Below are positions 1 to 51,524 of a stretch of 64,000 nucleotides of DNA, piece by piece. Location: assembly GCA_001800285.1 (NCBI GenBank), contig MGVC01000075.1:19058-83057 (forward strand), given 5' to 3'. The translations under genes and the position numbers were made by a program. This stretch comes from Elusimicrobia bacterium RIFOXYA2_FULL_39_19 (GTDB lineage: Bacteria > Elusimicrobiota > Endomicrobiia > CG1-02-37-114 > XYA2-FULL-39-19). Positions within the stretch are counted from its first letter, which is position 1. The number at the start of each line of letters is the position of its first letter. Below the pieces are notes generated by a model. It saw only the letters and a list, made by a program, of their open reading frames with translations. It was not told where the DNA came from and did no database searches.

Positions 1-3000
1 CAGACCTTTACTTCAATCCTGTAGCCAATGATTCATTGGTTTACTTAAATACTTCAGACAGCTGGGATGTGCATCCGTCAACTAATGCTCTTGAAACGGG
101 TACAACCATCTTCTCGGTTACTCTTGTAACCGCAGGTTCAGCGCACAGAATATATGCGGTGGATTCTGCAATAGCGCCTGACGGTTACTTCCTGTCCACC
201 GATACTTCACCGGTAATTACCGCGGCGCCTAATACAACAAATGCCAACAACTTTGCCCTGCAGATAGTGGCTCCTGGTGTTTCACCGGTGCCCGGCAAAC
301 CACCGTATCCTCCGGATGCTACCGGCGGAAGAAGCGGGTCTCCAAATTATCAGACTGCAGGCCAGGAGTTTGAAGTTACGGTAAATCTTGTAGACCCCTA
401 CTGGAACATAGTAGGTACAGGTTATGACCAGCAGGTCCAGCTGATGAAAATAAATAAAACTGAAGGCCCGGCGGATCAGTACGGTATTTATACTTCTTCC
501 AGGCCGCTTATTAATGGCACTACAACATTTAAATTTGAGTTCAGGACTGCCGGCCCTGCCAGCTTCTCACCGCTAACGTGGTCCAGCTGGACTATAACAG
601 TAAGCGATGTAGATTCTAATCTGCCTAACTATTCTGATGCCGTAACGCCGCTTATCCAGGTCAGCCCCGGCACCAGAAGCAAAATGCAGGTCTTAGTGCC
701 CGGTGAAACCTGGGCGCCCGGAAAAACTACCGGCAAGCTGGGCAAAACAGAAGGCTCTACGCCGGATGTTTATGTGGCTGGTTCCACATTTACTGTTACC
801 GTGCATGCCTGCGACAGTTTCTGGAATGTGGTAGATACCGCGCCGGTTGTCGGCCTTTATCAGCATTATGATGCAGCAAACAATACCGCTGGTGACCCGA
901 ACGCGGCTACAACTACACCGTTAAGCCAGGCTTTGACTAATGGCAGAGGCTTATATATTGCTAAACTCGTAACTGCCACTACTCCGTATGTTGAAACCAA
1001 TACCGGCCCGTGGAGAATGAAGACAACTAATAACCTGGGCATGACTAACTGGGATGATGAAACCCAGAACTACGGAACAACCCAGCTATTGAAAGTCCGC
1101 GCGGCGGCTCCTACTAAACTGCTTACCCTGGTGCCCAGCCAGACAGCGCGCCTGGGTGTGGGTTCCGGAAGACAGGGAACTGTTGCCACTCAATTTGCAG
1201 GCCAACAGTTTGATGTTACAGTTTATGTAACTGATGAAATGTGGAACGTGGTAACCGGTACAGGTGCAACTAATGTCACTCTTACAACAACTGATCCTTA
1301 TGATGATGAAAGCGGATACTCCGGAGCTACAACACTGGGCCGTGCGCTGATACCTGTTACCTTTTCAAGAGGTATGGATGAACAGTACTCAATTACAGCC
1401 TCCACTTCCACAGGCAGGCCGGAAGCCTATGCTTCAAATACATCTGATCTTATCACTTCCAGGTACTGGACTGCCACAAAACTGCAGATAATAGTCCCCG
1501 GCGAAACGGCTGAGCCCGGCAAAATGTCAGGCCAGGCAGGCAAACTGGACAGTTCTAATCCTTCAAACCAGGTAGCAGACGAAATGTTCCGTGTTACCAT
1601 AAACATTACCGATGACAGGTGGAACCCGGTACCTACTGCCGGCTCAAAAGTAAAACTTATATCCAATGATATTTATTTCTCCACCATAACCAATCAGGAC
1701 ATTGCCGGCGGAACCGGTTATCTCTGGCCGAAACTTATGACTGCCACTACTTCCGGCTGGACGCTGAATGTTTCTACTGATGCCGGCGGTTCGGCGCATT
1801 ATACGGCACATACTTCACCGGCTATCAGAGTACTGCCGGGCAATCCTTCAAAACTGCTGGTCAGGGCTCCGGGTGAAAACTTATTGCCCGGTTCCGCTAC
1901 CGGAAAAACAGATGCCCCGAATTATGCTACAGCAGGTACTACAATTACAGTAACTGTTTACGCTACGGACTCAAAATATAATCAGGCCTATTCCAGCGCC
2001 GTGGTGCGTGTCTACACAAATGATTCATACAGTGTAAGTATGTCTTCTAAACAATTAGTTGACGGTACTACAACTTTTGACGTGTTATTCCTTACGGCAA
2101 ATGCTGCGCCGCTTGACGGCACAACCCAGAAATACGCCGTGGTAATTGCCACGCACATGAAAGAGCTGGATGCACCCGGCATAAGCTACACTCTTACTAT
2201 TGGCACTGTTTCTGTGCCGGTAACCCCGGAAAATGGAAAATACTTATTGCTTCTTGTGCCGGGTGAAACCCACGTGCCCGGCAAACCTCCCTATGCACCT
2301 ATTACCAATGCGGGCGGCGGAAAAACAGGTACGCCGAATACACTTTATGCCGGTGTAACTTATTATGCCACGGTATTGGTCTGCGACCCGTACTGGAATA
2401 TTGATATAACTCCAACTGACACTGACCCGTACGTAAAGGTAAGAACTACTGACCCGTTTGATGACTCTTACGAAGCGGCTTCTGGTATTGTTGACGGTGT
2501 GCGCACGTTCAGCTTCAGGCCCCAGAGAGCCACCTTACAGCAGAAAACATTAATTGATAAGACCACCGTGTCAGCCGAACACGATACCGGAACCACTCTC
2601 TTTTCCAGGTCTGAATCCATTGGCCTTGATGTGCTGCCTCAGCAAAATATTCCTCAGTACCCCAGGCATTTACTGGTGCTGGCGCCTAATGAAACACATG
2701 TGCCCGGCTCTACACTGGGCAAACAAAATACTATTTCCAACAAGAAAGCCGGTGAAAAATTCTCTGCCAGCGTTTACGGTGTGGATGCCTTCAACAATAT
2801 CTGCGACGACGTACAGCCCAATATTACACTCACTTCCACAGATGCTAACGATAACACTGCAGCAGGCCAGCCGGAATATTCATGGGATCCGCTTACCCAG
2901 CCGTTGTTTACGGGTACAACTGTATTTAACATTCAGCTGGTTACTGCAAATACGTATCACTTCTTAATAGCTATTGATAATGATGCCACCGTGCCGGATT

Positions 3001-6000
3001 ACGGCTCTGCCTATTCAAGCGGTGTCTACATTGACCCGGGCCGTCCGGATAAACTGCAGGTGCTGGTGCCCGGTGAAACTTCAGTGCCAAATACAGTGCT
3101 TGGAAAATCCGGCACCCCATCAGAAATGCCCAATAAACAATTTAAGGCAGGAGAGTCTTTCTTTATAACAGTAAATGCAACAGATGTGTTATGGAATATT
3201 CAGACTGAGATAAGCCCGAACGTTTATGTGGAATCTTCTGACCAGTACGGCACAAAGAATAATTCCCTTTCTGTAACAAATGGTTCGGAAGAAACTTCTA
3301 TAACAGTTTATAACGCTGAAATGGCAGGACTGACAGGTTACGCCACGCATTACATAAAATCCTATCCGCTTGCAGAAATAAACTATAATGGTGACGATAT
3401 ATTGCTTTCTACCGGCACCAGCTCAGACCTGAAGGTATATCCTGCTCTTGTTTCCCGTTATCATTTAATCGTGCCTAATGAAATTGCTGCCCCGGGCAAA
3501 GGGCCCTATGACGGCACAGGCGGAAAAAATTACAGCGTTTCCTTCCAGACGGCGGGTGTAGTATTCCCTGTAACTGTACGCGCTACAGATAATTACTATA
3601 ACGTCTGTACCACTGCAGTAATCGGAGGCGTGTCTATAACAGTAACAGACCCGTACAGCGGTTATTCCAGAAGCCAGGGCTTAACCCAGGGACAGAATGT
3701 ATGGAACAATGTTTATATGTACACGGCATCCACCTGGGCAGTTAGAGCTGCGGGAAGCCTGGGTACTTTTGATTCAAGCATCTTGAGAATTATTCCTGAC
3801 AGGGCGCAGAGATTAAGAATACTGTCTCCGGGAGAACAGGCAGACCCGGGCAACGTGCCGACACGAGGCAGAAAAACTAATATTTATCCAACCGGCCATA
3901 TGGCGGGCGAATCTTTTGGTGTAACCGTTGATGCTACCGATGATTATTATAATATGGTCTCCACGTCAGGCATCAGGGTAGCCATTACTACGGATGACCT
4001 GTATGATACGCACCCCAGCACAAAAACGCTTGCTTCGGGTACAACGTCATTCCTTGTAACTCTTGTTACCAAGCAGGATACCATTATCACCGCTACCACA
4101 GATTATTGCAGCAATTATAGATATGATTATACCCAGCCAATCGGCATATCAACCAACGTGCCTTACAGAATTCAGCTATTAGTGCCGGGTGAAACCCATG
4201 TTGACGGTAAAATTTCAGGCACACAGCCCGGTAAAACAGAGGATTCCCTGCCCTTATCACAGGTGGCAGGCGCGGCCTTTACTGTAACCGCTTTGTGCGT
4301 GGACCAGTATTACAATCTGACGGATGAAAACCCGTCCATTACAATTATTTCTGATGGTGCAGACGGCGACCCGTATGATACGCCGGCTATCGGCAGAACC
4401 CAATGGCTTTCTAATGGCCAGTATGTATTCTCAGGGCTGGAACAATTTAATTTTGTAACCAGAAATAATGATACAGGAAACGGCTGGAAAATAAGAATGT
4501 CAGCTTTCAGCTGGAGTGAAGGAGAAGGCTATCCGGGCATACTGGCAAATACAATTCCAAGCGAAAGAGTGCCGGTAGCTCCGGGCTTATCAAATAAAGT
4601 TCAGGTGTTAGTTCCCGGCGAATTGTCCAGCTGGGGTAATCAGGCAGGTTACGGAAAAGCTGATGACCCTGCCCTTACAGGTTCCGGCGCTATTGACCAG
4701 ACTGCCGGTGTGGCTTTTGAAATCACCTCTTATGCCGTTGACTCTTATTACAACAGAGCTACAAATACTACTGCCGGCGGCGCTGAAACCAGCCTGTTAA
4801 GTTTAGCTTCCGGCAATCCATACAAAACCTTTACACCTGATTCACAGGCACTGATACAGGATTCAACCATAACCTTTACAGTCACTCTTTACAAAGCGGC
4901 TACATCACAGCTTACCTTAAGCGATACAGAATCTCCGTACATTGATAATGGCGTAAGCAGTGTGCTTGCGTTAAATTCCAGCGCGCCGGTAACTACAGTA
5001 CTATTGCTTCCAAACCAGACTATTGATTCCGGCAAGCCGCCTTATTATCCGTCAGGCTGGGGCGGAAAAACAGGTGCTGTTGCCACCCAGACCGCCGGCA
5101 CCACATTCTATGCTACCGTGCAGGCCGTGGATAAATACTGGAATCCTTACAGCGATGTATCGCTGGTTACCATAAATACACCCGACCAGTTTGATTTTAA
5201 CCCAACAACGGCCGCCTTAAATGCAACCGGCTACAGGGTTTATGACGTAAATATAGTTACCGTAGGCACTTACACTTTAACAGCGTTTGATACTGACGGC
5301 ATAAGCGGCAACGGCTATAACGGCGGCACAGAATTAAATCTGGGTGTATCCTCTCCTGTTTACTGTGCGCCGGGCACACCGTCAAAACTGCTGGTCTTAC
5401 TGCCGGGAGAAAACGGCACGCCCGGTAAACCGCAGAGCGGGAAAACCGGTACTCCAGATACGCAGACTGCTGGTACTGTTTTTGATGTTACCGTACAACT
5501 TACAGATGCCAACTGGAACCGCGTTACTAACGGTACCATGCCTACTATAGAGCTGGCTTCTACGGATGTTTACTGGTCAACGCCTCTGGCAAGGCCGTTA
5601 AACCAGGGCCAATTTATATTTGCTGCACAGTTATTAACAGCCGCCACTCATTCTATCTCAGCTTCCGGCGGAGGTTACTCAGGATTGTCTTCAACCTTCA
5701 CGGTTAATCCAAAAGTTGCCGATCCTATAAAATATCTTGTCATACTGCCGGGACAGGAACAGGTTAACGGCAAATACGGCGCGGCTTTTGAACCTCAGGG
5801 CAGAAGAGGCAATGCAACAGTGCAGATTGCCGGCGCCAGATTTACACCGACTATTTATGCCACAGATGAATACTGGAACAGAATTTCTACCAGCCAGTTA
5901 GTAACCGTAACCATAGATGATGCTTATGGCCAGCTGTCTAATGCAGTGCTTCCTACGGACGATTATTCAGTGTCCGCTACTTTAAGCGTGAACATGACAA

Positions 6001-9000
6001 ACGGTATTGCCGTGGTAAATACGGTGCGTTCAAGAAAAGCCGGCACACATACAATTACTGCCACGGATAATGACGGGGTAGACCCGGCAATAAATCAAAG
6101 CTTAGCCAACACTCTTACGGTAATTTCCGGAGACCCGGAAAGGCTGATGATTTTTGCCGAAGGCGAAGCTTCTGATGCCGGCAGAGCGCCAACCCCGAAT
6201 AATTATCCGAATAATCCTACCGGCGGAAAATCTACAACTGACCTGCCTTACAGCAAGGCAGCCGGAGATCTTTTTGATGTTACAGTAAGAGTAACAGATA
6301 AATACTGGAATATGGCTTCAAGCCAGCAGGCAATAAAAATTTATACCAATGACGGCAATACAGTTTATAATTCAGCGAACAAATATTCAACCGTTGTTAC
6401 AACGGAAGTTATTGTAAACGATATATTCTCCTTTGTGTCAGCCGGCACCAGAGTGCTTTATGTGGAGCATTCATCTTACACCGGGTCCAACTACAACAGA
6501 ACCCAGAATGTCACAGTTACCCCGGGCGCTGCTTCAAGATTGCTTGTAAAAATGCCGGGCCAGACCTTTGATCCGGGCTCAAACCTTGGAAAATTTAACG
6601 ATCCCGCAATTGTTACCCAGACCGCCGGCACATCGTTTGATGTAGAAGTAGCCATTACAGACAGCCATTTCAATATAGTACCGGGTGCCGTGGGAACCAT
6701 GGTGCTTTATACACCTACTGATCCTTATGATGTGGAACCCGCGCAGGTAAATATTACCAACATAGATCCGGGCTACATTCCTATAAGTTTCACCACAGGT
6801 TTAAAACGCGCCGCTACTTACCATTACATAGTTGCAGAAGAACTCTACGGTGCTTATACAAAATATCCTTACAATGCGCCGGATTATGCTATATCCACCT
6901 TCACCGTACTGCCTGGCACGCCGGACCATCTGCAGTTAGTGCTTCCGGGTGAAACGCCGGCATGGGGTTTAAATGTCAGCACTGCCAACGGCAAAACGGG
7001 TTATCCGTCAAACCAGACAGCCGGCGCTATATTTGAAGTAACAGTAAACCTGGTGGACAATTATTACAACACTTATAGCCGTGAAATATTCCCGTCACTG
7101 CCGGCAATAACTATGCCGGAAGTTACTGTGGAAACCAATGACCCTTATGATGCCAACTCATCTACTTCACCGTTAGGTGACATGACCGCCAGCCGTACTT
7201 TCCAGATGCAGTTAGTAACAGCCGCTACCTGGCACATGCTCTGGACCAAGGATGTTGACGGCTCTGACCCGAGATATATTACAGATGTCAGCAGCAGGCA
7301 GTTTACAGTAAATCCTTCTACTCCGGCATTTTTACTTGTGGTGGTGCCGGGTGAAACCCACGTGCCCGGAAAATGGAATATTCCTCCGTATGGCAGGACC
7401 GATACTCAGCCAACTGTGCATCCAGCCGGTGATGCCTTTAACATAGATGTTGTATTAACAGATATCTGGTATAACAGGATTATGTCAGGAGTAGATATGC
7501 CTTCCTGCACGGTAACCACCTGGGATTATCAGGATTCTGAGCCAACCATACAGCGCTTGGCTTCCGGTTCAAGAGCCTTCAGCGTAAGGCCGTTAACTGC
7601 TTCTTCCTCCTGGACCTGCGTGTCAGTTGACTGGTCAACCGCGGCTGTAAAATATACTTCCAAAGAATCCAGCCAGATAAGAATATGGCCGGATGCCGCA
7701 TATTACATGCAGGGCACAAACTATATTGACCCTGTGCGCGGTTCTACCTGGGCTTATGCGGGCGCAGACTATAACGTAAGAGTAAATGTAAAAGACAGAT
7801 ATAATAACTTATGCTCTACCGGAAGCACCAGATATACCGGTGAAGTACAGTTTGTAGCTGAAATAGCTCCTACAAATTTTGTAAATACCCTGCAGAACCC
7901 CGAACCTCTGCCCGGCAGCGGCGGCGAATATTATACCTTCACGGAAGCTGATGCAGGCACGCATTTATTCACCATTAAACTTAAAAAGACCGGTGCCCGC
8001 TGGATAAACTGGCGCCAGAGAACAGATGCCCTTATAGGCACGGACAGATCCGGTTATGTAAATAACCCGGTAATTGAAGTAAGGCCGGGTGACCCGAGCA
8101 AATTTGCCTTTGCCACACCTGACCCGTGGACAGACCCGATCTATGTAAAAGCCGGTACTTCCGGCGGAGTAGCTAACCGCCAGCAGGTAAAAGCGTTTGT
8201 GGCAGATGCCTACGAAAACCAGGTTTCAAGTTCAAATATTTCCGCGGTATTAAGTGTAGTGGATGTATTTGGTTCTTCAGGAACTATAAAAGATGCTTCC
8301 GGCAATGTAATAACTTCTACTACAACCGACAGCAATGGTGAAGTGGGCGGCCTGGGCAAAGAATTGTATTATGAGGTATCAACTACCGGCGGCCATTATG
8401 CCAAGGTGCAGGTATCTACAGCTGCGGGTGCAACCATTACAGGCAAATCTGTAAACATTATGACTACCGGCGGTGATTTATACCGCTTCCAGTTTGTAAC
8501 TACGCCTTCGGACATTGAAGCTTCCGCGGGTAACATAAAATCTACCGTATTTACTTTTGAAAAACGCGATTACTGGAATAATCCTACGGGTGAAACAAAC
8601 ATAGTTTCCTTATCTATCGGCACCCAGCTGAAAACTGATTCACCTTCTGTACTAAATTCACAGAAGAAATATTGGAATAAAACTACCGATACCATGCTGA
8701 GCATGTATGATGTGGCTATACCAAACTGGCCTGCTGCTGTCTGGCCGGTGCCAGCAGCAAATTCACAGGCATCATTTAGATATTCTGATATGTATGCTTC
8801 GTGGCCTGCAGGCGAAGACGGCTCTCAGGGCACGGCTACCGCCGCTCTGCCTGCGCGTCCGTCAATAGGTAAATGGACTGCGAGGGTTGAGTATGGTACC
8901 TATGTAGGTTCAACAACGTTTACTGTAAACCCGGGCGCTATAACTCAGGTAGGTTTTGATGTTATTCCTTCAACCACGCTGCCGTTACTGGCGGGTATAG

Positions 9001-17961: not shown

Positions 17962-18104
17962 TATACCAGGATAGGGGGCTATCCTGAAAATCAATGAATT
18001 TAAACAAATTTCACAGTGTTATTACTAGTTACTAATTGTACGGATTAATAATATTACATTATTATTAATAATCTGTATAATATAATAACAATTGTTCTTT
18101 ATTA

Positions 18105-18265: not shown

Positions 18266-18320
18266 AACCCGAAAGTTTCAAGTAAGTTTTGCGTTAAATA
18301 ATTGAAATTCGGGTTTTTTT
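18266..18320 (+). terminator. Terminator-like hairpin + U7 tract (candidate riboswitch expression platform)
   Basis: AACCCGAA (18266-18273) pairs with TTCGGGTT (18308-18315), with an inner TTTCAA/TTGAAA helix. A T7 run (18314-18320) follows, directly abutting the first possible start codon of the next gene. The aptamer 3' segment GGGTT (18186-18190) could alternatively pair with AACCC of the 5' arm as an anti-terminator. Confidence 0.55.
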
Positions 18321-18321
18321 A

Positions 18322-20034: not shown

Positions 20035-20140
20035 ATAGATGAACGCAATAATAAATGCAATAATTGCAAGTTTTGCAACTAAGCCAATGTATTTAGGAAT
20101 TAATAATTATAATTATTATATAAAGGGAGTGAAGACTAAA

Positions 20141-42600: not shown

Positions 42601-44773
42601 AATTACATCAAACAGGCCTGTTCTTACCTGGCAGCCAAGCGTGGATATTGACAACGAAATAATAGTTTATACTTTGAGTTATTCCACATTTTCAAATTTT
42701 TCTTCGTCAAATGTTTTTACAATTACTAATTTAAACTCTTATACAGTTGCTTCTAATTTATCTGAAAATACAACTTACTACTGGAAGGTGGTTTCAAGAG
42801 ATGTTTTTGAATCAAAGCATTCGCTTTCAACCGGGGTATTTATTGTAAATGCTGTTGCGGAACAACCCACAGCTTTTGAGCTGACCGCATCTTCGGGAAT
42901 ATTAAATATTTCAACTCCTACTTTTTCCTGGACCCAGAGTTATGAAAATGATCCCGGAGATTATATAGCTTATTACACGCTTTATTATTCAAGCAGCAAT
43001 TTTCTTGTGACGCAGGCAACAACAGGTCTGAAAACCGCATCTTTCATTCCTTCGCAGGCATTACAGGAAAATATAACTTATAAGTGGTTTGTAACAGCAA
43101 CAGATTCTAACGGCCTTACAACAGCTTCCAATAGTACCTGGACTATTACTATAAATGCTGTTGATGAATATCCGGATTCGTTCAATCTGGTGTCTTCTAC
43201 GGGCTGGGTATCTTCAAGAAGGCCGTCTTTTGTATGGAACCGGGCAGACAAAACAGAGTGGTGGGATACTACGGTTTATAAACTTGAGTGCGGAAATCTG
43301 GCAAACCAGCTGGATTTGATTACGCGTACAGGCATAACTATCACTACTTATACAATTGATGTGGATTTACAGGAAAATGCAACTTACTGGTGGAGAATTA
43401 TAGCTACAGATTCAGCAAACCATTCTACAACATCAAATCAGATATTCTATATTTTTGTCAGTTCAGTAAACGATGCCCCGGGTAATTTTGGACTTACCGA
43501 GCCCGCGGACGGTTCAGTAATTAATACCAGAACTCCTGTTTTTTTGTGGGAAAAACCGACAGACCCCGACGAACCCAAGGGTGACCGCATAGCTTATTAC
43601 AATATTTATTATGCCACTACCCCTGTTTTTACAACGCAGAATATTATTATCAATCTTACAACCAACACCTTTACCTTGCCGGAAGTTTCCAGATTGCTTC
43701 AAAATACAACTTTTTACTGGAAAGTAGCTGCCTATGATATGCAGGGAAGCAGTACTGTGTCTCCCTTTTATAGTTTTTTTGTCGCAAATTTAAAAATACT
43801 TAAAACTCCGGAGTATTTCACAAGCACTGTTCTTAATGAAGACGGCCTTAGTTTGGTCTTGGCCTGGCCGGCAATGACACAGTATACCGACGATAGCATT
43901 GCCGATGATCTGGCGGGATACAATGTCTATCGTTCAATTAATCCGTTAGAAGGTTATGTTTTATTTGCATTTACTAAAGATAATTATTATATGGATACAA
44001 CGGTTAATAACTCGGTTTATTATTACTTTATACGATCAGTCAGTGTGACGGGTATAGAAGGTTCTGATTCGCCTATAGTATCTTCAGAAGCACAGAATAA
44101 AACCATATCTACCACAGAAAATAAGGATGCTTATCTGGAACTTTCTAACAGTATGATGAATACAATGAAAAGCAGAAACACTCTGCCTACAATTACAAAA
44201 ACTAATAATATTTATGAAATTAAAGTTACAAGAACCGACACCGGAGAGACAATAGAAAATTATAAATTCACCGAAACTATAACACTGAATTTTGTCATTA
44301 CTGCTGACGCTTCTTCACGCAAGACAGTCCAAAGCTATAACAGTAAATATGCAATTTATTGGCATAACGGAATTGAATATATAAATATTGGCGGCGAAAC
44401 AGATGATGCAGGCACTAAGATCTATGTAAATGCCATTTATTCAGGAAAATATAAATTGATGAGTATTATAGATTCGGATTTTTCCTACAGTGTTGAGCCC
44501 AGAAAAATAATAACGCCGAACTCAAGGGGTTCAGCTGTAACAGAAACCTTTAAAATAAGGTACGTAAATAATACCGGAGAACAGGTCTCCGCAGAAATAT
44601 TTGATTTAACAGGAGCTTTTGTGGCAAGGATGCACCAGCATGATAATCAGGGTGAATATCTTGAATGGGACGGCAGGCAGGCAACCGGCGAATATTCAAA
44701 AAAAGGCGTATACTTATACCAAATAAAAGCCGGTTCAAGGCTTTATTCTGGAACTGTAATTATTGCAAGATAA
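39680..44773 (+). CDS. Secreted FN3-array surface protein (1,697 aa) with C-terminal sorting-type domain (cargo 3)
   Basis: Signal peptide MNKIFKKLFWIIIIAAFRASVFA. Three N-terminal FN3 domains (VTLKWTAPGEDD...VTYYFAVKGCD; VNLSWSAPGDDG...TTYYFRVWTKD; VKLRWIAPCEDN...VTYYFSIKSAD). About 9 units of the same 'F.W....DPDPGD..Y.L.YS....F...(A/T)TYYW.V.A.D' type as cargo 2. A late FN3 (YNVYRS...VYYYFIRSVS). The CTD at ~44490-44770 is IITPNSRGSAVTETFKIRYVNNTGEQVSAEIFDLTGAFVARM...YLEWDGRQATGEYSKKGVYLYQIKAGSRLYSGTVIIAR. Confidence 0.8.
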   Translation: MNKIFKKLFWIIIIAAFRASVFADTAVPPAAISNLTALPHDTQEGAVTLKWTAPGEDDLTGTVENYSLKFATYQILSVQFDGTPDYFHGWSAFAAGNSQEEQVVTGLTPGVTYYFAVKGCDSLSNYGIWNSIIDVAEANTLNSTFAQILPPGPITDLYADITGFDEGKVNLSWSAPGDDGYLNTLGSGSDFLIQSSTNPDEAWAPLSAQLTVSTSSIIPGNKQLKTIATLIPGTTYYFRVWTKDENPDCFSPLSNQATAWIQTDISPPTAITRIDTFDNGFKHVKLRWIAPCEDNNSVPYNTGISTISYEIKYATFQITSEVLYNSATVFLVISSSITQPGNFETFTVTGLTNGVTYYFSIKSADETGAWSVISSSSPKSLVFNSLPNPASLDITNLQRYISVSSHTIRWSGADAGGNLGNYDSSFGDSISSYTVYFSTYYTSQTTIGRSTVTFNGIINISTVTSRLSENATYWMVVYTYDTESGCGFSTLNSAWHWLTVNTVNDAPNNFNLYASSGIANFKDYSPYNEKLRFRWNATTDPDGPADFVAEYRLYYSISQNFETNITTGITGITASSYTITHSLQDNTTYYWFVVARDSGNPFNYAVKSTSSSVWSVIVNCVNSVPGNFLLLTPASSTVVNNTRTPLFTWNASIDPDPGDSIYEYKLFYSSWTQNFSSTQTLAGQSELSCGVETSTRTPVLVENATYYWCVAAYDNAQTLSQLYSAPPYFIQESTKSITRYFVINSENEPPNAFSLYSPIGSTNPAVTSEMVFDWADTIDPDPFDQVHHYALYFSQDPNFSVALTTWTPFLYNSSVTVNYPFSPGVNYYWNVGAYDAAGNCRVSASTGVFIIAQNAPQSFTIITPTGSVRNLLPRFDWNNAVETDPYDDISYYRLYYSTSLNFESGITTWTGNIPVSSYTFTALNTLTLRTTYYWNVRAYDSTGLFSVSNTTGVFFTSNRAPGDFDLIYATGNSVITSNRPVLTWQPSVDIDNEIIVYTLSYSTFSNFSSSNVFTITNLNSYTVASNLSENTTYYWKVVSRDVFESKHSLSTGVFIVNAVAEQPTAFELTASSGILNISTPTFSWTQSYENDPGDYIAYYTLYYSSSNFLVTQATTGLKTASFIPSQALQENITYKWFVTATDSNGLTTASNSTWTITINAVDEYPDSFNLVSSTGWVSSRRPSFVWNRADKTEWWDTTVYKLECGNLANQLDLITRTGITITTYTIDVDLQENATYWWRIIATDSANHSTTSNQIFYIFVSSVNDAPGNFGLTEPADGSVINTRTPVFLWEKPTDPDEPKGDRIAYYNIYYATTPVFTTQNIIINLTTNTFTLPEVSRLLQNTTFYWKVAAYDMQGSSTVSPFYSFFVANLKILKTPEYFTSTVLNEDGLSLVLAWPAMTQYTDDSIADDLAGYNVYRSINPLEGYVLFAFTKDNYYMDTTVNNSVYYYFIRSVSVTGIEGSDSPIVSSEAQNKTISTTENKDAYLELSNSMMNTMKSRNTLPTITKTNNIYEIKVTRTDTGETIENYKFTETITLNFVITADASSRKTVQSYNSKYAIYWHNGIEYINIGGETDDAGTKIYVNAIYSGKYKLMSIIDSDFSYSVEPRKIITPNSRGSAVTETFKIRYVNNTGEQVSAEIFDLTGAFVARMHQHDNQGEYLEWDGRQATGEYSKKGVYLYQIKAGSRLYSGTVIIAR

Positions 44774-44774
44774 T

Positions 44775-46247
44775 ATGAACAAAATTAAAGCCATAAAAAT
44801 TATTGCAGGATTAGAAAAACAAAAAGCCGTAAAAAAGCGGATAACCGCTGTTTCTATGATTTTTGTTATATACTGTCTGTTTACAGGAAACGTCACGGCT
44901 GATTTTAATTATACAGGCATTGGTGCCCGGCCTGTTGCTTTGGGTAATTGTTATACGGCATTTTCTGATGATGCTTTTGGGGTTTATTATAACCCCGGCG
45001 GTTTATGTTTTGCGCGCTACCCGGAAATAAGTACGCAGTTCGGCCAACTTTGGATGAATTTGACTGATAACTCAAATCTTACTGACGGTTATTTAGGCGG
45101 AGTTTATCCGGTGGAAAAAGCAGCTTATGGTTTTGCGGTCCAGAAATTTTCGCTTGACGGATATTATTCTGAAAACACAATGTCATTTGCCTATAGCAGA
45201 AAAATCAGCGATTCTCTGGGACTGGGTGTTACTTTCAGGCAGATGCAGCAGGCCTATACTATGGATGAATATACTTTGACGGATGAAGTATTCAATAACG
45301 GCAATACAGTATCAAAGGCTGCCTTTGGTATTGACCCCGGTTTACTGTGGGCCTTTTATCCGGACTATTTTTTCGGAATGTCCATAATAAATCTAAACCA
45401 GCCGGATTTTGGCCTGGTGGAAAAAGAAATGCTTCCCGTAACATTTAATTTTGGGTTAAGTTACAGGAGCAACTATCCTTTAGGAGACATAAGCCTGGGT
45501 TTAGGTCTCAGTCAGACGGATAAGGATTATAAAATCACTTCAGGCATAGAGAAATTATTAATGAAGGGGAAATTAGCCGCCAGGCTTGGCTACGGGTTCG
45601 GTTCCAGCCAGTATTCGGGAATTTCTGTGGGTATAGGTTTAAAAATTGTACAGGCAACGTTTGATTATTCATTAAATTTCCCTGTAAGCGGAATGAAGCA
45701 GACCGGAGGAACACAGCGCATAAGTTTGACTTACCGGTTTGCCAGGCTCTCTGAAGAAGAAATGGAAGGCCAGCAGAATTTCAAAGCTGAAAAAGCCCAG
45801 CTGATAAAGAAGTATGAAGGCCAGGTAAAAGAGCTTGAAAATAAAATATCGGAACTTGATGCAAAATTTGCAGAGTCCCAAAGAATGCCGGCAGCACAGC
45901 AGACCCCTCGGGATATAGAAAATAGCAGGAAGATTGAAAAACAGATTCTTGAAATGCAGGGAAAATTGAAAAATCAGAAAATACAGAAAGAGCAGGAGCT
46001 GCAGGCTCCGGTGCCTCAAAAAGTTATTTACGATGAGCCGCTGCAGGAAGTAATACCCAAAGTGCAGCCACAGACCCCTAAAGAACCTGCCGCAAAGACT
46101 CACACGGTAAAAGAAGGAGAATCCCTGCTTTCCATAGCACAGAAATATTATAATGATTCATCAAAATGGAAAATTATTTACGAAGCAAATAAGAGTAAAA
46201 TTGAAAGAGGCCAGGTTTTACCGGGCCAGGTACTTAAAATCCCATAA
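44775..46247 (+). CDS. FadL/PorV-like outer-membrane barrel + coiled/linker segment + C-terminal LysM (paired with cargo 3)
   Basis: ATG at 44775 lies 1 nt after the cargo-3 stop; the track's TTG at 44763 overlaps it. Signal-like ITAVSMIFVIYCLFTGNVTA. Barrel signature GIGARPVALGNCYTAFSDDAFGVYYNPGGLCF, then ~290 aa of beta sequence. A K/E/Q-rich linker follows. Terminal LysM: HTVKEGESLLSIAQKYYNDSSKWKIIYEANKSKIERGQVLPGQVLKIP. Confidence 0.75.
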   Translation: MNKIKAIKIIAGLEKQKAVKKRITAVSMIFVIYCLFTGNVTADFNYTGIGARPVALGNCYTAFSDDAFGVYYNPGGLCFARYPEISTQFGQLWMNLTDNSNLTDGYLGGVYPVEKAAYGFAVQKFSLDGYYSENTMSFAYSRKISDSLGLGVTFRQMQQAYTMDEYTLTDEVFNNGNTVSKAAFGIDPGLLWAFYPDYFFGMSIINLNQPDFGLVEKEMLPVTFNFGLSYRSNYPLGDISLGLGLSQTDKDYKITSGIEKLLMKGKLAARLGYGFGSSQYSGISVGIGLKIVQATFDYSLNFPVSGMKQTGGTQRISLTYRFARLSEEEMEGQQNFKAEKAQLIKKYEGQVKELENKISELDAKFAESQRMPAAQQTPRDIENSRKIEKQILEMQGKLKNQKIQKEQELQAPVPQKVIYDEPLQEVIPKVQPQTPKEPAAKTHTVKEGESLLSIAQKYYNDSSKWKIIYEANKSKIERGQVLPGQVLKIP

Positions 46248-47363
46248 TTGGAGTATATTGTGGACAAAAACATAGAACAACTAAAAGACAAAATAGCAAG
46301 AATAAAGGAAAAATCCAGGGAGATTTCTAAAAAAATATCTTCCAATATAGACACACAGCCTAAAACATATTCCGAAACTGTTATCCCGGCAGGGCTGGAT
46401 ACTACGAGAAAACAGGATTCCCCGGCAGTACCGGCTTCATTTAAAATTGAAAACAAAATCAAAGAAGAAGAATTACGCCATAAAATAGCCGAACTGGAAC
46501 AGGAAAAAAGTTATCTTGCAACAAAACTTACCAATATTCAAAACGAAAAAATACTTTCAGAAGCCAGATCAGGTGAACTGTCAAAGAAAAACGAGGAATT
46601 GAATAAAAAGCTGATAGAGCTTGATAAGGGCAAAAAAACCGTTGAACAAGAAGTAGAAACCATAGCGGAAACACTCAAAAAGTTTGACCAGACTTCCTGG
46701 AACAAATATTCGGTTGATTTAATATGCCAGTTTATTGGCGAAGCCAGCAGATATTTCAGAAATTCACAGGGTATGATAAATGAAGCCATTAAAATGTGTA
46801 CCGACGATAAAGGTATGTCAGATTCACTTAAAAAGAAAATAGCTGTTGTGCAGAACGAAATACTAAGGGTATTGAATGTTTTTTCCGATGCAAAAACAAA
46901 ATATACTTTTAAAGGCATAAATATTCAAAGAGTTAATCTGAAAAACTTTATTGAAAACGTAGTTTCTAAAAATACAGTTAAAATACAAAATAAAGTAAAA
47001 ATAGAAACCCGTATTCACGATTCGGACTGTTATGTAAACATTGACCCGGACATCTTTGAAGATGCTTTTAGTGAAATGATTACAAATTCTTCGGAATCCA
47101 TCTTAAAAGACGGTGTCATAAGAATAGAATCACATGCCATAGGAAGGAAAACAGTAATAGAAATATCCGATACCGGCTTAGGCGTGCCTCCTCATCTTAT
47201 GGACAAAATTTACTGCCCGTTTTTTTCAACAAAACAGGATCATACAGGACTGGGCCTTACCAGGGTATACTGGGTAGTTCAGCTTCATAAAGCAGAGATA
47301 GACCTTGAAAGCCAGGTAAATGCAGGTACCAAAATTACCATCATTTTACCTGAGGAGGAATAA
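46248..47363 (+). CDS. Soluble coiled-coil + histidine-kinase-like ATPase (HATPase_c intact, no H-box histidine) (module 2)
   Basis: N-terminal ~150 aa are coiled coil with no TM segment. ATP-binding boxes are readable: N box FSEMITNSSESI, G1 ISDTGLGVP, F box CPFFSTK, G2 GLGLTRV. At the expected H-box the sequence is FIGEASRYFRNSQGMI, where a canonical kinase reads (S/A)HE(L/I)RNP. That puts Arg where the phospho-accepting His should be. TTG start at 46248; GTG at 46260 is an alternative. Confidence 0.7.
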   Translation: MEYIVDKNIEQLKDKIARIKEKSREISKKISSNIDTQPKTYSETVIPAGLDTTRKQDSPAVPASFKIENKIKEEELRHKIAELEQEKSYLATKLTNIQNEKILSEARSGELSKKNEELNKKLIELDKGKKTVEQEVETIAETLKKFDQTSWNKYSVDLICQFIGEASRYFRNSQGMINEAIKMCTDDKGMSDSLKKKIAVVQNEILRVLNVFSDAKTKYTFKGINIQRVNLKNFIENVVSKNTVKIQNKVKIETRIHDSDCYVNIDPDIFEDAFSEMITNSSESILKDGVIRIESHAIGRKTVIEISDTGLGVPPHLMDKIYCPFFSTKQDHTGLGLTRVYWVVQLHKAEIDLESQVNAGTKITIILPEEE

Positions 47364-47365
47364 AA

Positions 47366-48460
47366 ATGCCGAGGCTTGAAACAACTCATGAAGCAATGAG
47401 GCATTATTACAGGGGCCGGGTATTCGAATCTACCGGCGAAATAGATATTGCTGTAAGTGAATATAAAAAAGCTATAGAGTTAGGAGCTGATTATGCAGAT
47501 ATTCATAATAGTATGGGCAGGGCATATGCAAAAAAAGGCCAGTTTGTCGAAGCATCAAAAGAATTTCAGTGTGCCTTGCAGATGAATCCTCATTATCTTG
47601 AAGCCCAGAGAAACCTTATAGAGCTTGAAACCAGGTTGACAGTCATTCAGAAAGAAAAAGAAAATACGACTATTAGCAGAAAGTTATTTTATAAAACTGA
47701 AAGCAGGCCCGGCAAACGCAGAAAATTTCCTCTTGTCCCTGTATTATCTATTGTGGCAGGAATAGTTCTGTTTACGCTTACTTCGGTTCTGGTAACAAAC
47801 ATGATTTTTCCGGCTAAATTAAAAAAATATACTGCACCTTCAGAAAATGTAACAGGTATTTCTTTTGACGACAAGGATATTTGGCTTTGCGATTGGTTCA
47901 AGCAGGAAATATACTGTGCCAAGATAATTGATGATGAATTAATAGTAAAAAAGACCTATTCCATGAAAACAAGTTTCCCCATCGGTGTTGCCATAGGTAA
48001 AAACTATCTCTGGACCTGCGATGGCTGGAACAAAAAAATAAGCAAACACATGTACGACAATGATTTATCCATCCTGGCAAGTTACCCTTCCCCGGGCAAC
48101 AATCCCTCATCTTTGTGTTTTGACGGCGAAAATCTATGGTCTACCGATGCTGATTCGAAAAAAATCTATAAACACAGCATGGATGAGATGAATTTATCAC
48201 CAGAGACTGTATACAAAAGCCCCTGCTCCAGGCCGATGGGTTTTTCTTATGACGGTAAAAACTACTGGTCAGTTGACGGAGATAATAATATAATCTACAA
48301 ACACAGAAAAAACATGAACATAATTGATCAATACCAGATGAATTTTCCTAATAAAAAGTTAAGCGCAGTGCTGGTAGACAAGAAAAATGTCTGGATTGCT
48401 TTTGAAGGTGATTCCGGCCTGCTTTGTTATCCGAGAAGCAAAATACTGAAACAGGAATAA
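47366..48460 (+). CDS. Bitopic membrane protein: cytoplasmic TPR - TM - periplasmic beta-propeller (module 2)
   Basis: RBS GAGGAGGA upstream. TPR: YYRGRVFESTGEIDIAVSEYKKAIELGADYADIHNSMGRAYAKKGQFVEASKEFQCALQMNPHYLEA. TM: FPLVPVLSIVAGIVLFTLTSVLVTNMIF. Blade-like repeats match those of 38395-39591: IWLCDWFKQEIYCAK, LWTCDGWNKKISKHM, LWSTDADSKKIYKHS, YWSVDGDNNIIYKHR, VWIAFEGDSGLLCYP. Confidence 0.7.
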   Translation: MPRLETTHEAMRHYYRGRVFESTGEIDIAVSEYKKAIELGADYADIHNSMGRAYAKKGQFVEASKEFQCALQMNPHYLEAQRNLIELETRLTVIQKEKENTTISRKLFYKTESRPGKRRKFPLVPVLSIVAGIVLFTLTSVLVTNMIFPAKLKKYTAPSENVTGISFDDKDIWLCDWFKQEIYCAKIIDDELIVKKTYSMKTSFPIGVAIGKNYLWTCDGWNKKISKHMYDNDLSILASYPSPGNNPSSLCFDGENLWSTDADSKKIYKHSMDEMNLSPETVYKSPCSRPMGFSYDGKNYWSVDGDNNIIYKHRKNMNIIDQYQMNFPNKKLSAVLVDKKNVWIAFEGDSGLLCYPRSKILKQE

Positions 48461-48463: not shown

Positions 48464-50317
48464 ATGGAAAGTTTAAATAATCTGATCATATTATCAGGGA
48501 GTTTTGCTGCGCTTGTGCTGTTATTTGCCCAGTTCTTTTTTAAACCGGCAAAAAAAACAACAGCAAGGCCTGTAAATGCGGTTAAAACACAGTCTCCGAT
48601 GATATTTAAAACATTAATATCAAAGTTCAGGCAGATTGATACCATGGTAGATTCATTACGAACGCAAAAAAATGTTGAATTGCTTAAGTCTGAAGTTGAA
48701 TCGTTGAAAAACTATGTAGCTGACATAGAAGCAAGCATTATAGAAAAAATCAAAATGAAAGATAATGAAAAACTGCAGCTTAAGGCACAGGTTACGCTGA
48801 TAAACACAAAAATAGAATCTGCTTTTGTGCATCTTACAGAAGACGAGAGCAAGCTGGCATATAACAAACAGTTGCTGGAATCGAAAATACATACTTTTGA
48901 AGAAAAAGAAAGCTCAGAAATAAAAACAATAAACAACGATATAGAAAATTTAAAATCAATTCTATCCGATTACAGCGCCAGATTTAAAACAATGAATACG
49001 GAGGTTTTAAGCAATGAGGTAAAGGCGTTGTCTAGTGAAATGGCGATTTTAGAAAACAATTACGAAATAAGCAAAGAAAAATTCAGCCTTAATTTAAGCA
49101 CCAAAGATACAGATATAATTAAATTGAATGAAGAGTTTATTAAAATAAAAGAAGAAAAAGCTGCAGTGTTGGATATAATTCATAAAAGGAAAAGATTGCT
49201 TGAAAACGAAATTCAGCAACTTAAGCATAAATATGATCAGGAAATACAGAGAAGCCTGAAGGAAAAGGAAGATAAAAAAACAGAGATAGAAAATTTGAAC
49301 CAGGCTATAACAACTACTGAAAAAGAAAATAAAGCTATTGAAAACCTTATTACCTTAAGAACAGGCCTTGAAAAACAAATTGCTGACCTGACAAAAAGAA
49401 TTAAGGAACAGGAAAGGTCACATTTAAATAGCATAGAAGAGAAAAACGAAATATTAAAAACATTGTCTGTAAGTGCCCAGGAAAAAGAAAATGAAATAAG
49501 TAAAAGATATGAAGAAGAACGGCAGAAGACACTTCTGGAACAGATTGAACTGGAAAATGAAATTAAACGATTAAATGAAAACTGCGATAAGCTTAAGAAT
49601 ACAAGCATTGCGGCAGAATCGGCGCTAAAAGAAGAAGTTGAAAAACTGCAGAAAGCATATCGCCAGAACGAAGGAAAATACCAAAACGCAAAGAAGGGCC
49701 GCCTGAAGGTAGAGCAGGGTATACACGACAAGTTAAAAATTCAGCTTGACGAATTGCAAAAAGACATAGAAACGAAAACAGCAGATTACAAAAATGAGCT
49801 CAAGACCAGAGAAGAGCAAGTGTATATATTAAGAACACGCTTAGGCATAAGGGAAGATAAACTGCTTTCTGACATACAACGGCGCAGGGATCTGCAAGCC
49901 AAAATTATTGAAGACCTTAAAGTAACAGGTGATAAACTTAGAAAAACAACTCAGGGCACTACTGAGAAATATAGCAGAAATGTGGATGCCGTATCGAAAA
50001 AAGTTGAATCTATTAAATCTGACGTTGCTTCTGTAGACGCATTTATCAAGCAGGAAGAACTGTTGTCAAATAAGCTTGAGGCCCAGAGAAAGAAAATTGA
50101 AAACGAAATAGCAATAATAGAAGATAAATTGACCCGTGACCTGCATGATATGAAAGAGTTTATAACAATGAAAAATAGACAGATAAAAATGCTTTCAGAA
50201 GAAATAATTGAAAAAGAAAATCTTTTAAGGGCAGAACATACAGCATTAGGAAAGATTGTGCATTCTACCGTTGAACTTAAAACCCAAAAAAGCAAAATAG
50301 GCCTGGAAAAAGAGTAA
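48464..50317 (+). CDS. N-terminally membrane-anchored coiled-coil protein (617 aa)
   Basis: One N-terminal hydrophobic helix (LIILSGSFAALVLLFAQFFF), then ~560 aa of K/E/L/I/N-rich coiled-coil-type sequence. It starts 3 nt after the preceding stop. Confidence 0.75.
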   Translation: MESLNNLIILSGSFAALVLLFAQFFFKPAKKTTARPVNAVKTQSPMIFKTLISKFRQIDTMVDSLRTQKNVELLKSEVESLKNYVADIEASIIEKIKMKDNEKLQLKAQVTLINTKIESAFVHLTEDESKLAYNKQLLESKIHTFEEKESSEIKTINNDIENLKSILSDYSARFKTMNTEVLSNEVKALSSEMAILENNYEISKEKFSLNLSTKDTDIIKLNEEFIKIKEEKAAVLDIIHKRKRLLENEIQQLKHKYDQEIQRSLKEKEDKKTEIENLNQAITTTEKENKAIENLITLRTGLEKQIADLTKRIKEQERSHLNSIEEKNEILKTLSVSAQEKENEISKRYEEERQKTLLEQIELENEIKRLNENCDKLKNTSIAAESALKEEVEKLQKAYRQNEGKYQNAKKGRLKVEQGIHDKLKIQLDELQKDIETKTADYKNELKTREEQVYILRTRLGIREDKLLSDIQRRRDLQAKIIEDLKVTGDKLRKTTQGTTEKYSRNVDAVSKKVESIKSDVASVDAFIKQEELLSNKLEAQRKKIENEIAIIEDKLTRDLHDMKEFITMKNRQIKMLSEEIIEKENLLRAEHTALGKIVHSTVELKTQKSKIGLEKE

Positions 50318-50423: not shown

Positions 50424-51524
50424 ATGACCGAACATAAAACTATTGAAGAATTGGAATCTGACGGTTACCGCATAATAGACGTAATTGCCGGTGATATACC
50501 CACATCAAAAGAAACCCAGTATATTATTGATAAAATTGCCCAGGAAAAAAGAGGCACTTTCTACAGCGATATACTTTATACGCTGAGTTCAGAAAGATTT
50601 TCTGAAAACGAAGCAAAAGACCTTTGGCAGGGTATACTGCGGCATAAATACATTATCAGTGAAACCCTGAAAAGAAATATCGGTGTACACGTAGCCGCGC
50701 TTGACTACCTGGAAAATATCAAAAAAATCATCACTTCTCCAAAAATTCTTGATGAAACAGAATTTCGTGAGACCCTGAAACTAGCAGAAACAGACCCTTT
50801 GACAGGTGTTTACAACCGGCGTGTAGCCATAAGGGAAATCAGTGACGAAATTAAACTGTCGAAAAAATCAGGGCTGAAATTTTCCATAATGATGATGGAT
50901 TTGGACGGTTTTAAGGATTATAACGATAAAGAGGGTCATACAGCAGGGGACCTGATTCTTCAGGAAATAACAGGAGTATTTAAAACCGAATTGCGCAAAG
51001 GCGATATTGTAGGCAGATACGGCGGAGATGAATTTATTATCGTGCTTCCCGGCACAGAAAAAATGCCGGCAAAACACGTGGCTGAAAAAATACGCCTAAG
51101 AGTAGAAAATGAATTTAAATCTGTAAACATTACCATAAGCATAGGAATAGCTGAATATCCTACTGACGGTAAAACGCTAGATGATATAATTACTAATGCT
51201 GATGAAGCTCTTTACAGGGCCAAGGAATTCGGAAAAAACAGGGTTATATATTTTAAAATAATTGATATTAAATATAAGCAGCAGGTTCCTGCGAAAGACG
51301 TAATTTGTGTAGGAGATTTTAACCGCTGGAGCAAAAAACACGGTAAAATGCAGTTTAATAATGATACTCATGAATGGATGATCAGTATGAGTTTAAAACC
51401 CGGAGTGTACAGATATAAATTTCTGGTAGACGGCACCAAATGGCTTGCAGACCCTGCTTCAACAGAATTAATTGAAGACGGTTTCGGGGGCAATTGTTCC
51501 GTATTGCGCGTACCGGCAGAATAA
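50424..51524 (+). CDS. Diguanylate cyclase (GGDEF, active-site and I-site intact) with C-terminal CBM48/AMPK-beta-like glycogen-binding-type domain
   Basis: GGDEF domain: DPLTGVYNRR...MMMDLDGFKDYNDKEGHTAGD...LRKGDIVGRYGGDEFIIVLPG...ADEALYRAKEFGKNRV. It has a canonical GGDEF motif and RxxD (RKGD) exactly 5 residues upstream, which is the allosteric I-site. C-terminal ~80 aa: VICVGDFNRWSKKHGKMQFNNDTHEWMISMSLKPGVYRYKFLVDGTKWLADP. This shows the G.FN.W....M.......W......L..G.Y.YKF.VDG.W..DP signature of CBM48/E-set domains. No TM segment. Confidence 0.85.
   Translation: MTEHKTIEELESDGYRIIDVIAGDIPTSKETQYIIDKIAQEKRGTFYSDILYTLSSERFSENEAKDLWQGILRHKYIISETLKRNIGVHVAALDYLENIKKIITSPKILDETEFRETLKLAETDPLTGVYNRRVAIREISDEIKLSKKSGLKFSIMMMDLDGFKDYNDKEGHTAGDLILQEITGVFKTELRKGDIVGRYGGDEFIIVLPGTEKMPAKHVAEKIRLRVENEFKSVNITISIGIAEYPTDGKTLDDIITNADEALYRAKEFGKNRVIYFKIIDIKYKQQVPAKDVICVGDFNRWSKKHGKMQFNNDTHEWMISMSLKPGVYRYKFLVDGTKWLADPASTELIEDGFGGNCSVLRVPAE

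Follow-up and report, generated by a model that had tools for sequence, protein, structure and literature searches.

What kind of apparatus is encoded where flagellar rotor domains stand in one gene cluster with outer membrane (OM) barrels and surface proteins of the type IX secretion system (T9SS) kind? The question is raised by a stretch of 64,000 nt (hereafter the window) of contig MGVC01000075.1 from Elusimicrobia bacterium RIFOXYA2_FULL_39_19, whose cluster genes are numbered g1–g15 along the + strand. The open reading frame (ORF) map places every gene from base 1 to about 62.2 kb on the + strand in tight packing, as an initial annotation made from the sequence had described for about 50 kb of it. 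We consider it fairly probable that the cluster is the part, within the window, of an envelope-spanning machine that is not a flagellum but has a flagellar-type rotary motor at its centre and would move, tension or deploy adhesins under the control of cyclic di-GMP (c-di-GMP). Homology identifies a ring protein of the FliF/FliG type, a barrel of the PorV type, surface proteins with a T9SS-like C-terminal domain (CTD), a c-di-GMP aptamer and, in relatives, a stator of the flagellar type. All of the parts come from known families (FliF, FliG, MotAB, FlbD, PorV, PorP/SprF, T9SS CTDs and GEMM-I), and what appears to be new is their assembly as a system. Full-text literature searches returned no description of a FliG/MotAB/PorV system. 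The claim of the initial annotation that the cluster matches none of the known systems holds for the assembly and is too strong for the parts, since the barrels are real homologues of T9SS families and the CTDs appear to be.

Profile searches were run on every window ORF. Related loci carry L-numbers (L005, L007, L012 and so on); the synteny set comprised 80 loci, one genome per species and nearly all titled Elusimicrobiota, which were compared by tblastn with the window proteins and the genes of the distant locus L007. Locus flanks were 10 kb long, and the stator count was limited to loci with at least 9 kb of downstream flank.

The rotor protein and its conserved neighbours

The product of g3 had been read initially as a fusion of a FliF ring, a transmembrane (TM) segment and FliG. 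In the profile search it matched FliG_C (1.5e-26), FliG_M (2.3e-15) and TIGR00207 (1e-35), and with a profile built from 14 members of the g3 family the PDB search gave 1lkv, the middle and C-terminal part of Thermotoga FliG, at 5.6e-59. The AlphaFold model of g3 (mean pLDDT 68.6) gave fold matches to the FliG middle and C-terminal domains at 1e-11; its periplasmic domain matched FliF S-ring/RBM3-collar structures (8z5v, 7bk0, 6sd3 and 6sd1) at 1e-4 to 5e-4, with a TM-score to the target of about 0.5, and Pfam YscJ_FliF_C is reached directly by g3 relatives. RBM1/2 are absent from g3, which has just the RBM3/collar-like domain between two TM segments, and no FliG_N was found in it. Given the FliG profiles, the FliF fold matches and the TM helices, g3 is best described as a one-chain rotor that joins FliF (RBM3) to the middle and C-terminal domains of FliG and carries an extra C-terminal tetratricopeptide repeat (TPR) domain, which confirms the predicted fusion. 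The torque helix of its FliG_C reads LVKEEMEY, against LLRDDLA in E. coli; among the 14 family members K506 is nearly invariant and E507 invariant, and the g3-family alignment contains 55 invariant columns.

The g3 family forms at least 120 clusters at 90% identity, and those with an organism name come nearly all from metagenome-assembled genomes (MAGs) of Elusimicrobiota or Endomicrobiia. The g3 protein itself was found identical on eight contigs from several assemblies, including scaffold_150 of the anammox-reactor metagenome ANAN16-1.

Across the 80 species-level loci the core is syntenic and consists of a CTD protein, a PorV-type barrel with a TPR tail (PorV-TPR, g2 in the window), the rotor (FliFG-TPR) and at least one coiled coil. 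Of the 65 loci with enough upstream DNA, 63 have PorV-TPR immediately upstream of the rotor gene, and a coiled coil with a g5-like N-terminal part of about 350 aa (amino acids) lies downstream in 54 of 60. By tblastn, this N-terminal part of g5 was detected directly downstream of FliFG in 62 loci at 30–48% identity, which makes g5 the phylum-wide coiled-coil partner. The second large coiled coil, g4, is specific to the window's clade, where orthologues of about 1,600 aa follow FliFG in L012, L015–L025 and L052. The co-conservation in relatives on which the initial annotation depended is thus observed, and a chance juxtaposition of these genes is ruled out by the phylum-wide synteny.

The stator was reported missing by the initial annotation, and this is accurate for the window. 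In relatives, a flagellar-type FlbD-MotA-MotB set is mostly adjacent: it lies further downstream of the core in 27 of the 42 loci with sufficient flank, and the 15 loci with no stator nearby are 12 from the window's clade, one paralogue (L049), L071 and L089. Over its whole length, the relatives' MotA aligns with flagellar MotA/PomA/MotP models at 1e-64 to 1e-68, with no ExbB/TolQ model among the matches listed, and it keeps the KAR...LALE residues at the PomA R88/E96 positions, the Arg and Glu that face FliG. MotB combines an OmpA domain with the plug and the channel Asp (YADLMT), and FlbD has a clear Pfam match. Within the window's clade, one contig carries PorV-TPR, FliFG, MotA, MotB, two proteins of coiled-coil size without a family match (1,514 and 945 aa) and an adhesin. 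In the MAG of L012, whose cluster is of the window type, motA-motB stands among housekeeping genes on a different contig, and flbD-motAB is likewise unlinked on two more Endomicrobia contigs. Because of these unlinked loci, the stator of the window's organism would be expected elsewhere in its genome.

In L007 (16384–17097) and 30 other loci, MotB is followed by a conserved lipoprotein of about 237 aa (lipobox LAAC, no family match), which may add another periplasmic component to the machine.

A search of 1.84 billion representatives with the FliF-like half of g3 matched just 98 proteins, some of which are FliF-FliG fusions of about 480 aa lacking the TPR. In a Margulisiibacteriota MAG (L094, 3096–14538), such a 480-aa FliF(RBM3)-FliG fusion heads a true flagellar cluster with MotA, MotB, FliK, an FlgE-like gene, FliM, FliN, FliPQR, FlhB and FlhA. 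In an Endomicrobiales MAG, the fusion comes after a giant fn3 protein and an FecR-like protein and before MotA, a pair of MotB and a free-standing TPR protein, with no flagellar genes in this context. On a third contig its surroundings include fn3+CHU_C cargo, a barrel of the PorP_SprF-TPR kind, kinases, MotAB and a protein with HATPase. That parts of these types have been put together repeatedly argues for a functional link among them, and it also suggests descent from a flagellum in which FliF and FliG were already fused. As a separate observation, the MotB of L094 has LysM in place of the OmpA domain. The MAG that holds L017 also encodes a second, soluble paralogue of g3 (L049, 9171–11014), a 346-aa protein that has FliG_M, FliG_C and TPR but lacks the FliF and TM parts; its gene directly follows that of a ParA/MinD-type ATPase (AAA_31).

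The barrel encoded by g2 matches the PorV family model NF033709 at 129.4 bits (cut-off 90), with further matches to UPF0164 and TPR. The top PDB fold matches of its AF2 model (pLDDT 81) are 8gl6_F (2.5e-13) and 6h3i_F (3.2e-12), followed by FadL/TodX. Both entries are Flavobacterium T9SS translocon complexes, and their chain F, the chain matched by the g2 model, is taken to be PorV from its size and fold. Since the TPR helices of g2 come after the barrel, they are predicted to sit in the periplasm.

Immediately upstream, g1 encodes a giant surface protein of 12,255 aa by the contig gene call, cut by the window edge. Of the three huge secreted repeat proteins with an FN3 and Ig-like end that had been described initially (g1, g6 and g10), all are giants, and g1 lies only partly inside the window. 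The N-terminal 2,500 aa or so of its window part are internally repetitive by self-BLAST, and Pfam searches of the 5,917 aa inside the window, in two pieces, returned no family at E <= 0.01, so that what is known of the architecture comes solely from self-similarity and the CTD. At the C-terminus stand an FN3-like segment and a T9SS type-A-like CTD of about 115 aa (about 17409–17753), whose motifs NYPNPF, YDLxG, WDG, GGY and RKIG are those of type-A CTDs; it has a weak match to TIGR04183 and another to the C-terminal tail of PorU. This CTD is homologous (5e-15, 3e-10) to proteins of 129–153 aa that consist of a signal peptide and a CTD only, which in relatives occupy the same slot upstream of PorV-TPR as g1. 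Across relatives, the protein encoded there ranges from a bare CTD to an adhesin of 12,000–17,000 aa. In the close relative L005 (1–8321), the upstream protein is 17,339 aa long, and a sigma-54 enhancer-binding response regulator is encoded between it and the CTD-only protein/PorV-TPR/FliFG genes.

Taken together, profile or structure searches support the assignments that mattered most to the initial annotation: FliG and, as top fold match of the barrel, PorV clearly, the FliF RBM3/collar fold and the CTDs with weaker scores. Its pairing of every adhesin with a barrel of its own is likewise found, with gaps to the ORF starts of g2, g7 and g11 of 565, 6 and -11 nt, as are the TPR modules on four proteins (g2, g3, g4 and g13).

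The c-di-GMP riboswitch and cyclase

The leader of g2 contains a predicted c-di-GMP-I aptamer of the GGC variant, which matches Rfam RF03167 over its full length at 60.7 bits (gathering score 59, E 7e-12) and lies 124 nt upstream of the g2 ORF. The initial annotation had placed a GEMM-I riboswitch at the front of the window; the element is present, and it heads the g2 operon between g1 and g2. Of 28 relatives scanned with Rfam, 19 have a class I aptamer directly upstream of the CTD/PorV-TPR/FliFG genes, among them lineages with adjacent MotAB. Because it recurs at the same position, the riboswitch belongs to the system, and its conservation across the phylum makes the c-di-GMP link firmer than had been claimed. 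As in known GEMM-I regulons, a class I aptamer stands in the 5' leader of a surface/motility operon and is followed by an intrinsic-terminator-like hairpin; the difference is that here it would control a flagellar-type rotor together with a PorV-type barrel, that relatives often have tandem aptamers and that the window copy is a GGC variant. These tandem pairs, one canonical and one GGC variant or weaker, occur in L017 (7617–7704 and 7898–7994) and likewise in L021, L014, L020, L023 and L052, and suggest a steeper or two-input switch.

The GGDEF cyclase noted earlier at the back of the cluster is g15 (GGDEF 6.7e-43, AMPK1_CBM 5.8e-11), with the GGDEF motif and RxxD I-site intact in the translation. 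Terminator and promoter scans inside the cluster returned hits at chance level only and gave no operon boundaries.

Candidate functions of the apparatus

These parts could be arranged as follows. In the inner membrane, g3 would form an MS-ring-like ring with its RBM3/collar in the periplasm and its FliG domains on the cytoplasmic face. Peptidoglycan-anchored stators of the MotA5B2 type, energised through the proton motive force (PMF), would turn this ring through the charged interface between torque helix and MotA, and the TPRs of the ring may bind coiled coils (g5 throughout the phylum, g4 in the clade) in place of a FliM/FliN C-ring. Like PorV in T9SS, the g2 barrel would hold the upstream gene product by its CTD, and the barrel's periplasmic TPR tail is a candidate link between the ring and the OM barrel and, via the CTD, the adhesin. 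Two accessory modules with LysM barrels, described below, could serve as fixed, peptidoglycan-tethered display sites. The g2 operon would respond to c-di-GMP through the riboswitch in front of it, with the diguanylate cyclase g15 closing the cluster. By analogy, the output would resemble that of the SprB/GldLM gliding T9SS with a MotAB/FliG engine. The envelope-spanning apparatus of the initial annotation is accordingly supported as a set of parts, and gliding or surface display is what we infer for its output.

Several points weigh against this machine as an adhesin mover. The whole proposal is built from sequence, synteny and predicted folds. A ring that turns beneath intact peptidoglycan cannot simply drag an OM barrel, and the torque path across that layer is unexplained. 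No CTD gene was detected beside the core in the L007 lineage and similar loci, so that the cargo link is not universal. Profile searches found no MotA/ExbB, MotB or FlbD among the window ORFs. The CTD scores are weak, one lying above its curated cut-off and the others just below. The genome-wide absence of flagella is taken from the literature, our own scan having covered the window and the loci. The isolates of the phylum are reported to be non-motile, and none of the 80 loci is titled Elusimicrobium minutum or Endomicrobium proavitum; since no locus appears under their titles, those isolates may simply lack the system.

The main alternative, which we regard as unlikely, is that the motor does not move surface adhesins and instead energises the secretion and attachment of CTD proteins, as a T9SS analogue in which MotAB and FliFG replace PorLM/GldLM. 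T9SS requires a PMF motor, and such a role would agree with a CTD cargo gene directly upstream of a PorV-type barrel, with PorV, a cargo shuttle, as the best fold match of g2, and with the bare CTD proteins of some relatives, which fit secretion or attachment better than motility. Several features are shared with T9SS and its gliding machinery: the cargo has type-A- and type-B-like CTDs and includes giant repetitive adhesins, a PorV or PorP/SprF-family barrel gene follows each cargo gene immediately, and the inner-membrane motor would be an ion-driven one of the 5:2 type. The translocation machinery itself, however, is not in evidence, as no window ORF matched SprA/Sov, PorK/N, PorL/M (GldL/M) or PorU, the sole PorU match being to its C-terminal tail. 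Barrels of PorV size are not, to our knowledge, translocators of folded giant proteins, and T9SS secretion has no counterpart of the huge cytoplasmic coiled coils. The motor also differs, being MotAB on a FliG ring and not GldLM/PorLM, as do the barrels with their TPR or LysM tails, the c-di-GMP riboswitch control and the host, which belongs to Elusimicrobiota and not to the FCB group.

The coiled coils and TPRs would be at home in a PMF-driven envelope tether or positioning device, similar to Tol-Pal or a polar landmark, which organises a pole or division site and has adhesin genes as mere neighbours. The loci of the L007 type, with no adjacent CTD gene, agree with such a device, as do the soluble FliG-TPR paralogue beside a ParA/MinD-type ATPase and the LysM and OmpA domains that anchor parts to peptidoglycan. 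We nevertheless find it improbable, given that several architectures, rearranged independently of one another, again combine FliFG with pairs of CTD cargo and barrel, and that conservation of the torque-generating residues points to rotation. Control by c-di-GMP riboswitches is, moreover, more typical of adhesion and motility genes.

Could the cluster instead hold relics or parts of a genuine flagellum, with the remaining genes elsewhere and the T9SS-like neighbours unrelated? Several features are shared with the flagellar motor: the FliG middle and C-terminal domains with their charged torque helix, a FliF RBM3/beta-collar-like fold between two TM helices, and the flagellar-type MotA, MotB and FlbD adjoining the rotor gene in relatives. 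A natural FliF-FliG fusion, among the nearest relatives of g3 that lack the TPR, even belongs to the real flagellar cluster of Margulisiibacteriota, and one survey lists some flagellin sequences labelled Elusimicrobia. Yet g3 lacks FliG_N and RBM1/2, its periplasmic part being only RBM3/collar, and has gained a C-terminal TPR, and it stands among giant coiled coils, CTD proteins and a PorV-type barrel. This gene order with non-flagellar partners is kept in 80 species, and the 55 invariant columns speak against decay. Queries from Margulisiibacteriota for FliK, the FlgE-like protein, FliM, FliN, FliP, FliQ, FliR, FlhB and FlhA found no match in the window or in 1.55 Mb of loci, nor were Pfam families of the flagellar export apparatus, rod, hook or C-ring present in the inspected neighbourhoods of relatives; no filament gene was found at the loci either. 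Flagellar machinery is, in published work, reported for none of the phylum's genomes, with which PMC7031533 concurs. That these genes are relics or parts of a genuine flagellum is thus very improbable.

Hardly credible at all is an ordinary T9SS cargo island, with its core elsewhere in the genome and unrelated genes beside it by chance: CHU_C/type-A-like CTDs and PorV/PorP-family barrels are indeed present, but the juxtaposition is conserved across the phylum, the invariant partner of PorV-TPR is the flagellar-type rotor FliFG, no T9SS core family was matched among the window ORFs, and the phylum is the wrong one, lying, as far as we know, outside the group in which T9SS occurs. Literature naming both type IX secretion and Elusimicrobia gave no link of T9SS to the phylum, its titles and abstracts having neither term, and one such paper cites T9SS only in a reference. 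The Myxococcus Agl-Glt gliding machinery offers only an analogy, in its PMF motor, TPR/coiled-coil partners, periplasmic links, OM barrels and surface adhesion; its motor, the TolQR-like AglRQS, differs from MotAB/FliG, and no Agl or Glt family was matched among the window ORFs.

Returning to the rotary machine coupled to adhesins, we tentatively propose, with rather less assurance than for the reading favoured above, that Elusimicrobiota may carry an unrecognised class of rotary nanomachine, in which a flagellum-derived FliF/FliG ring turned by MotAB, with no export apparatus or filament, would be coupled via a PorV-type barrel to T9SS-like CTD proteins and giant adhesins, and via TPRs to a huge coiled-coil cytoskeletal structure, under c-di-GMP riboswitch control. 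It is less likely that FliFG-MotAB is an early offshoot that shows the role of the flagellar motor before type III export. FliG and MotAB are known to us as working together only inside flagella. If the proposal is correct, the flagellum and GldLM/T9SS gliding would be joined by a third mode in which a 5:2 ion motor moves things at the surface, and a conserved non-flagellar use of FliG/MotAB in a phylum reported as flagellum-free and non-motile would widen the repertoire of bacterial rotary machines. It would also provide structural work with a natural minimal rotor, in which the FliF ring and FliG torque domains share a single polypeptide, and would suggest that the uncultured Elusimicrobiota of reactors, groundwater and sediments have an unrecognised c-di-GMP-switched mode of surface attachment or movement. 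The locus bears, in addition, on the evolution and recombination of the flagellar motor and of the T9SS-type cargo/barrel system.

Accessory modules and flanking genes

The coordinates of the cluster features are collected in Table 1.

Table 1. Genes and regulatory elements of the g1–g15 cluster in window coordinates.
Feature	Coordinates	Strand	Description
g1	<1..17756	+	Surface protein, C-terminal 5,917 aa in window; frame open to base 1
Terminator-like hairpin	17884-17897	+	Closes g1; consensus match only
Promoter-like site ATTACA-17-TATAAT	18053..18081	+	Ahead of riboswitch; consensus match only
c-di-GMP-I (GGC variant) riboswitch aptamer, predicted	18107..18197	+	g2 leader; Rfam RF03167
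Candidate expression platform	18266..18323	+	Hairpin AACCCGAA...UUCGGGUU then U7, ends at g2 start; sequence and centroid fold
g2	18322..20034	+	PorV-family 14-strand-type OM barrel (about aa 77-350) and C-terminal TPR domain of ~210 aa
g3	20039..22009	+	Rotor protein: TM1, FliF-like RBM3/beta-collar (~aa 62-225), TM2 (~227-260), Gly/acidic linker, FliG_M, FliG_C, TPR
Small ORF, 53 aa	22046..22207	+	Between g3 and g4; called in four independent assemblies; no family match
g4	22231..27024	+	1,597-aa cytoplasmic coiled coil, E+K+Q+L = 52%, TPR at 1554-1585
g5	27045..30320	+	1,091-aa cytoplasmic protein; Pro-rich N-terminus, conserved ~25-350 aa, then coiled coil of variable length
g6	30357..34916	+	1,519-aa secreted Ig/fn3-type adhesin, signal peptide, type-B (CHU_C) T9SS CTD
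g7	34923..37109	+	PorV/PorQ-like barrel, long linker, C-terminal LysM (peptidoglycan-binding)
g8	37141..38388	+	415-aa cytoplasmic coiled-coil protein
g9	38395..39591	+	Bitopic: cytoplasmic ~150 aa, TM 154-172, periplasmic beta-propeller-like domain
g10	39680..44773	+	1,697-aa secreted fn3/Ig adhesin, signal peptide, type-B-like CTD
g11	44763..46247	+	PorP/SprF- and PorV-like barrel, C-terminal LysM
g12	46248..47363	+	Cytoplasmic coiled coil and HATPase_c, G1 and G2 boxes present
g13	47366..48460	+	Bitopic: cytoplasmic TPR, TM 126-144, periplasmic beta-propeller-like domain
g14	48464..50317	+	617-aa protein, N-terminal TM anchor then coiled coil
g15	50424..51524	+	Diguanylate cyclase with C-terminal CBM48/AMPK-CBM-like domain

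In the contig gene call, g2 starts at 18340 and is 564 aa long. Neither g4 nor g5 has a predicted TM segment, and g4 has no predicted signal peptide either; g5 gave SMC-like matches. The three coiled coils counted initially (617, 1,091 and 1,597 aa; g14, g5 and g4) are borne out by composition and SMC-like matches.

Genes g6–g9 and g10–g13 form a duplicated module of a CHU_C adhesin, a PorV/PorP-like LysM barrel, a cytoplasmic coiled coil and a bitopic propeller-like protein, with HATPase_c found in the coiled-coil protein of the second copy (g12). The adhesin g6 matched Ig_Rha78A_N (1.6e-16), CHU_C (30.0 bits, cut-off 27) and TIGR04131 (5.6e-4), and its paralogue g10 (1e-77) matched fn3 (2.5e-21), Ig_Rha78A_N (7e-22) and TIGR04183 (3e-4), with CHU_C at 26.6 bits, just under the same cut-off. 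Matches of the window CTDs to TIGR04131 and TIGR04183 reach 19–21 bits and are under the cut-offs of those models. The barrels g7 (PorV_fam 9.7e-12, LysM 6.9e-7) and g11 (PorP_SprF 30 bits, cut-off 22.3; PorV_fam 4e-18, LysM 5e-8) are paralogous at 1e-35. The propeller proteins g9 and g13, also paralogous (1e-32), have one TM segment each, as expected for the two bitopic proteins described at first; their propeller matches are weak, to SGL/arylesterase in g9 and to a Vgb-like family in g13 (6e-7, residues 152–349), which in addition matched TPR_11 (2.6e-11). The order of g10–g13 returns in L071 and L089, two distant lineages, where an adhesin, a PorP-LysM barrel, an HATPase protein and a TPR-propeller protein come behind the core.

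Two His-less kinase-like proteins had been proposed, of which one stands. The HATPase_c domain of g12 (3.8e-16) has a PDB match to ZraS at 2.4e-14, aligned over the catalytic domain only, and the profile search detected no HisKA or H-box in this protein. The other candidate, g8, was rejected, having no Pfam match, PDB matches to coiled-coil proteins only and no similarity to g12.

Short tandem repeats are found at three intergenic sites: CCAAATAACC in three copies right after g1 (17838–17868), a 21-bp unit in 3.1 copies between g9 and g10 (39597–39661), and a 21-bp unit in 4.5 copies that fills the pyrK–pyrD spacer (56751–56845). The last belongs to a set of pyrimidine genes directly after the cluster (53115–59364, + strand), which encode a pyrR-like phosphoribosyltransferase, pyrB, pyrC, pyrK (the Fe-S subunit of dihydroorotate dehydrogenase B), pyrD, pyrF and a pyrE-like gene. 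The pyrR-like gene overlaps by 4 nt with g16 (51553–53118, +), a polytopic protein with at least 10 TM segments and a weak PMT_2 glycosyltransferase match, which could glycosylate surface proteins. Past the pyrimidine operon come larA and a gene for an FAD oxidase, then an hsdM-like gene; this last ORF (62878–64000, +) runs past the window end, and its N-terminal motif resembles that of a type I restriction-modification methylase (HsdM).

Within positions 1–30000 of the window, g1 has a GC content of 44–49% against 35–38% in g4 and g5, with an AT skew of up to +0.47. The contrast probably stems from amino-acid content (T/S/G-rich versus E/K-rich) and not from foreign origin.

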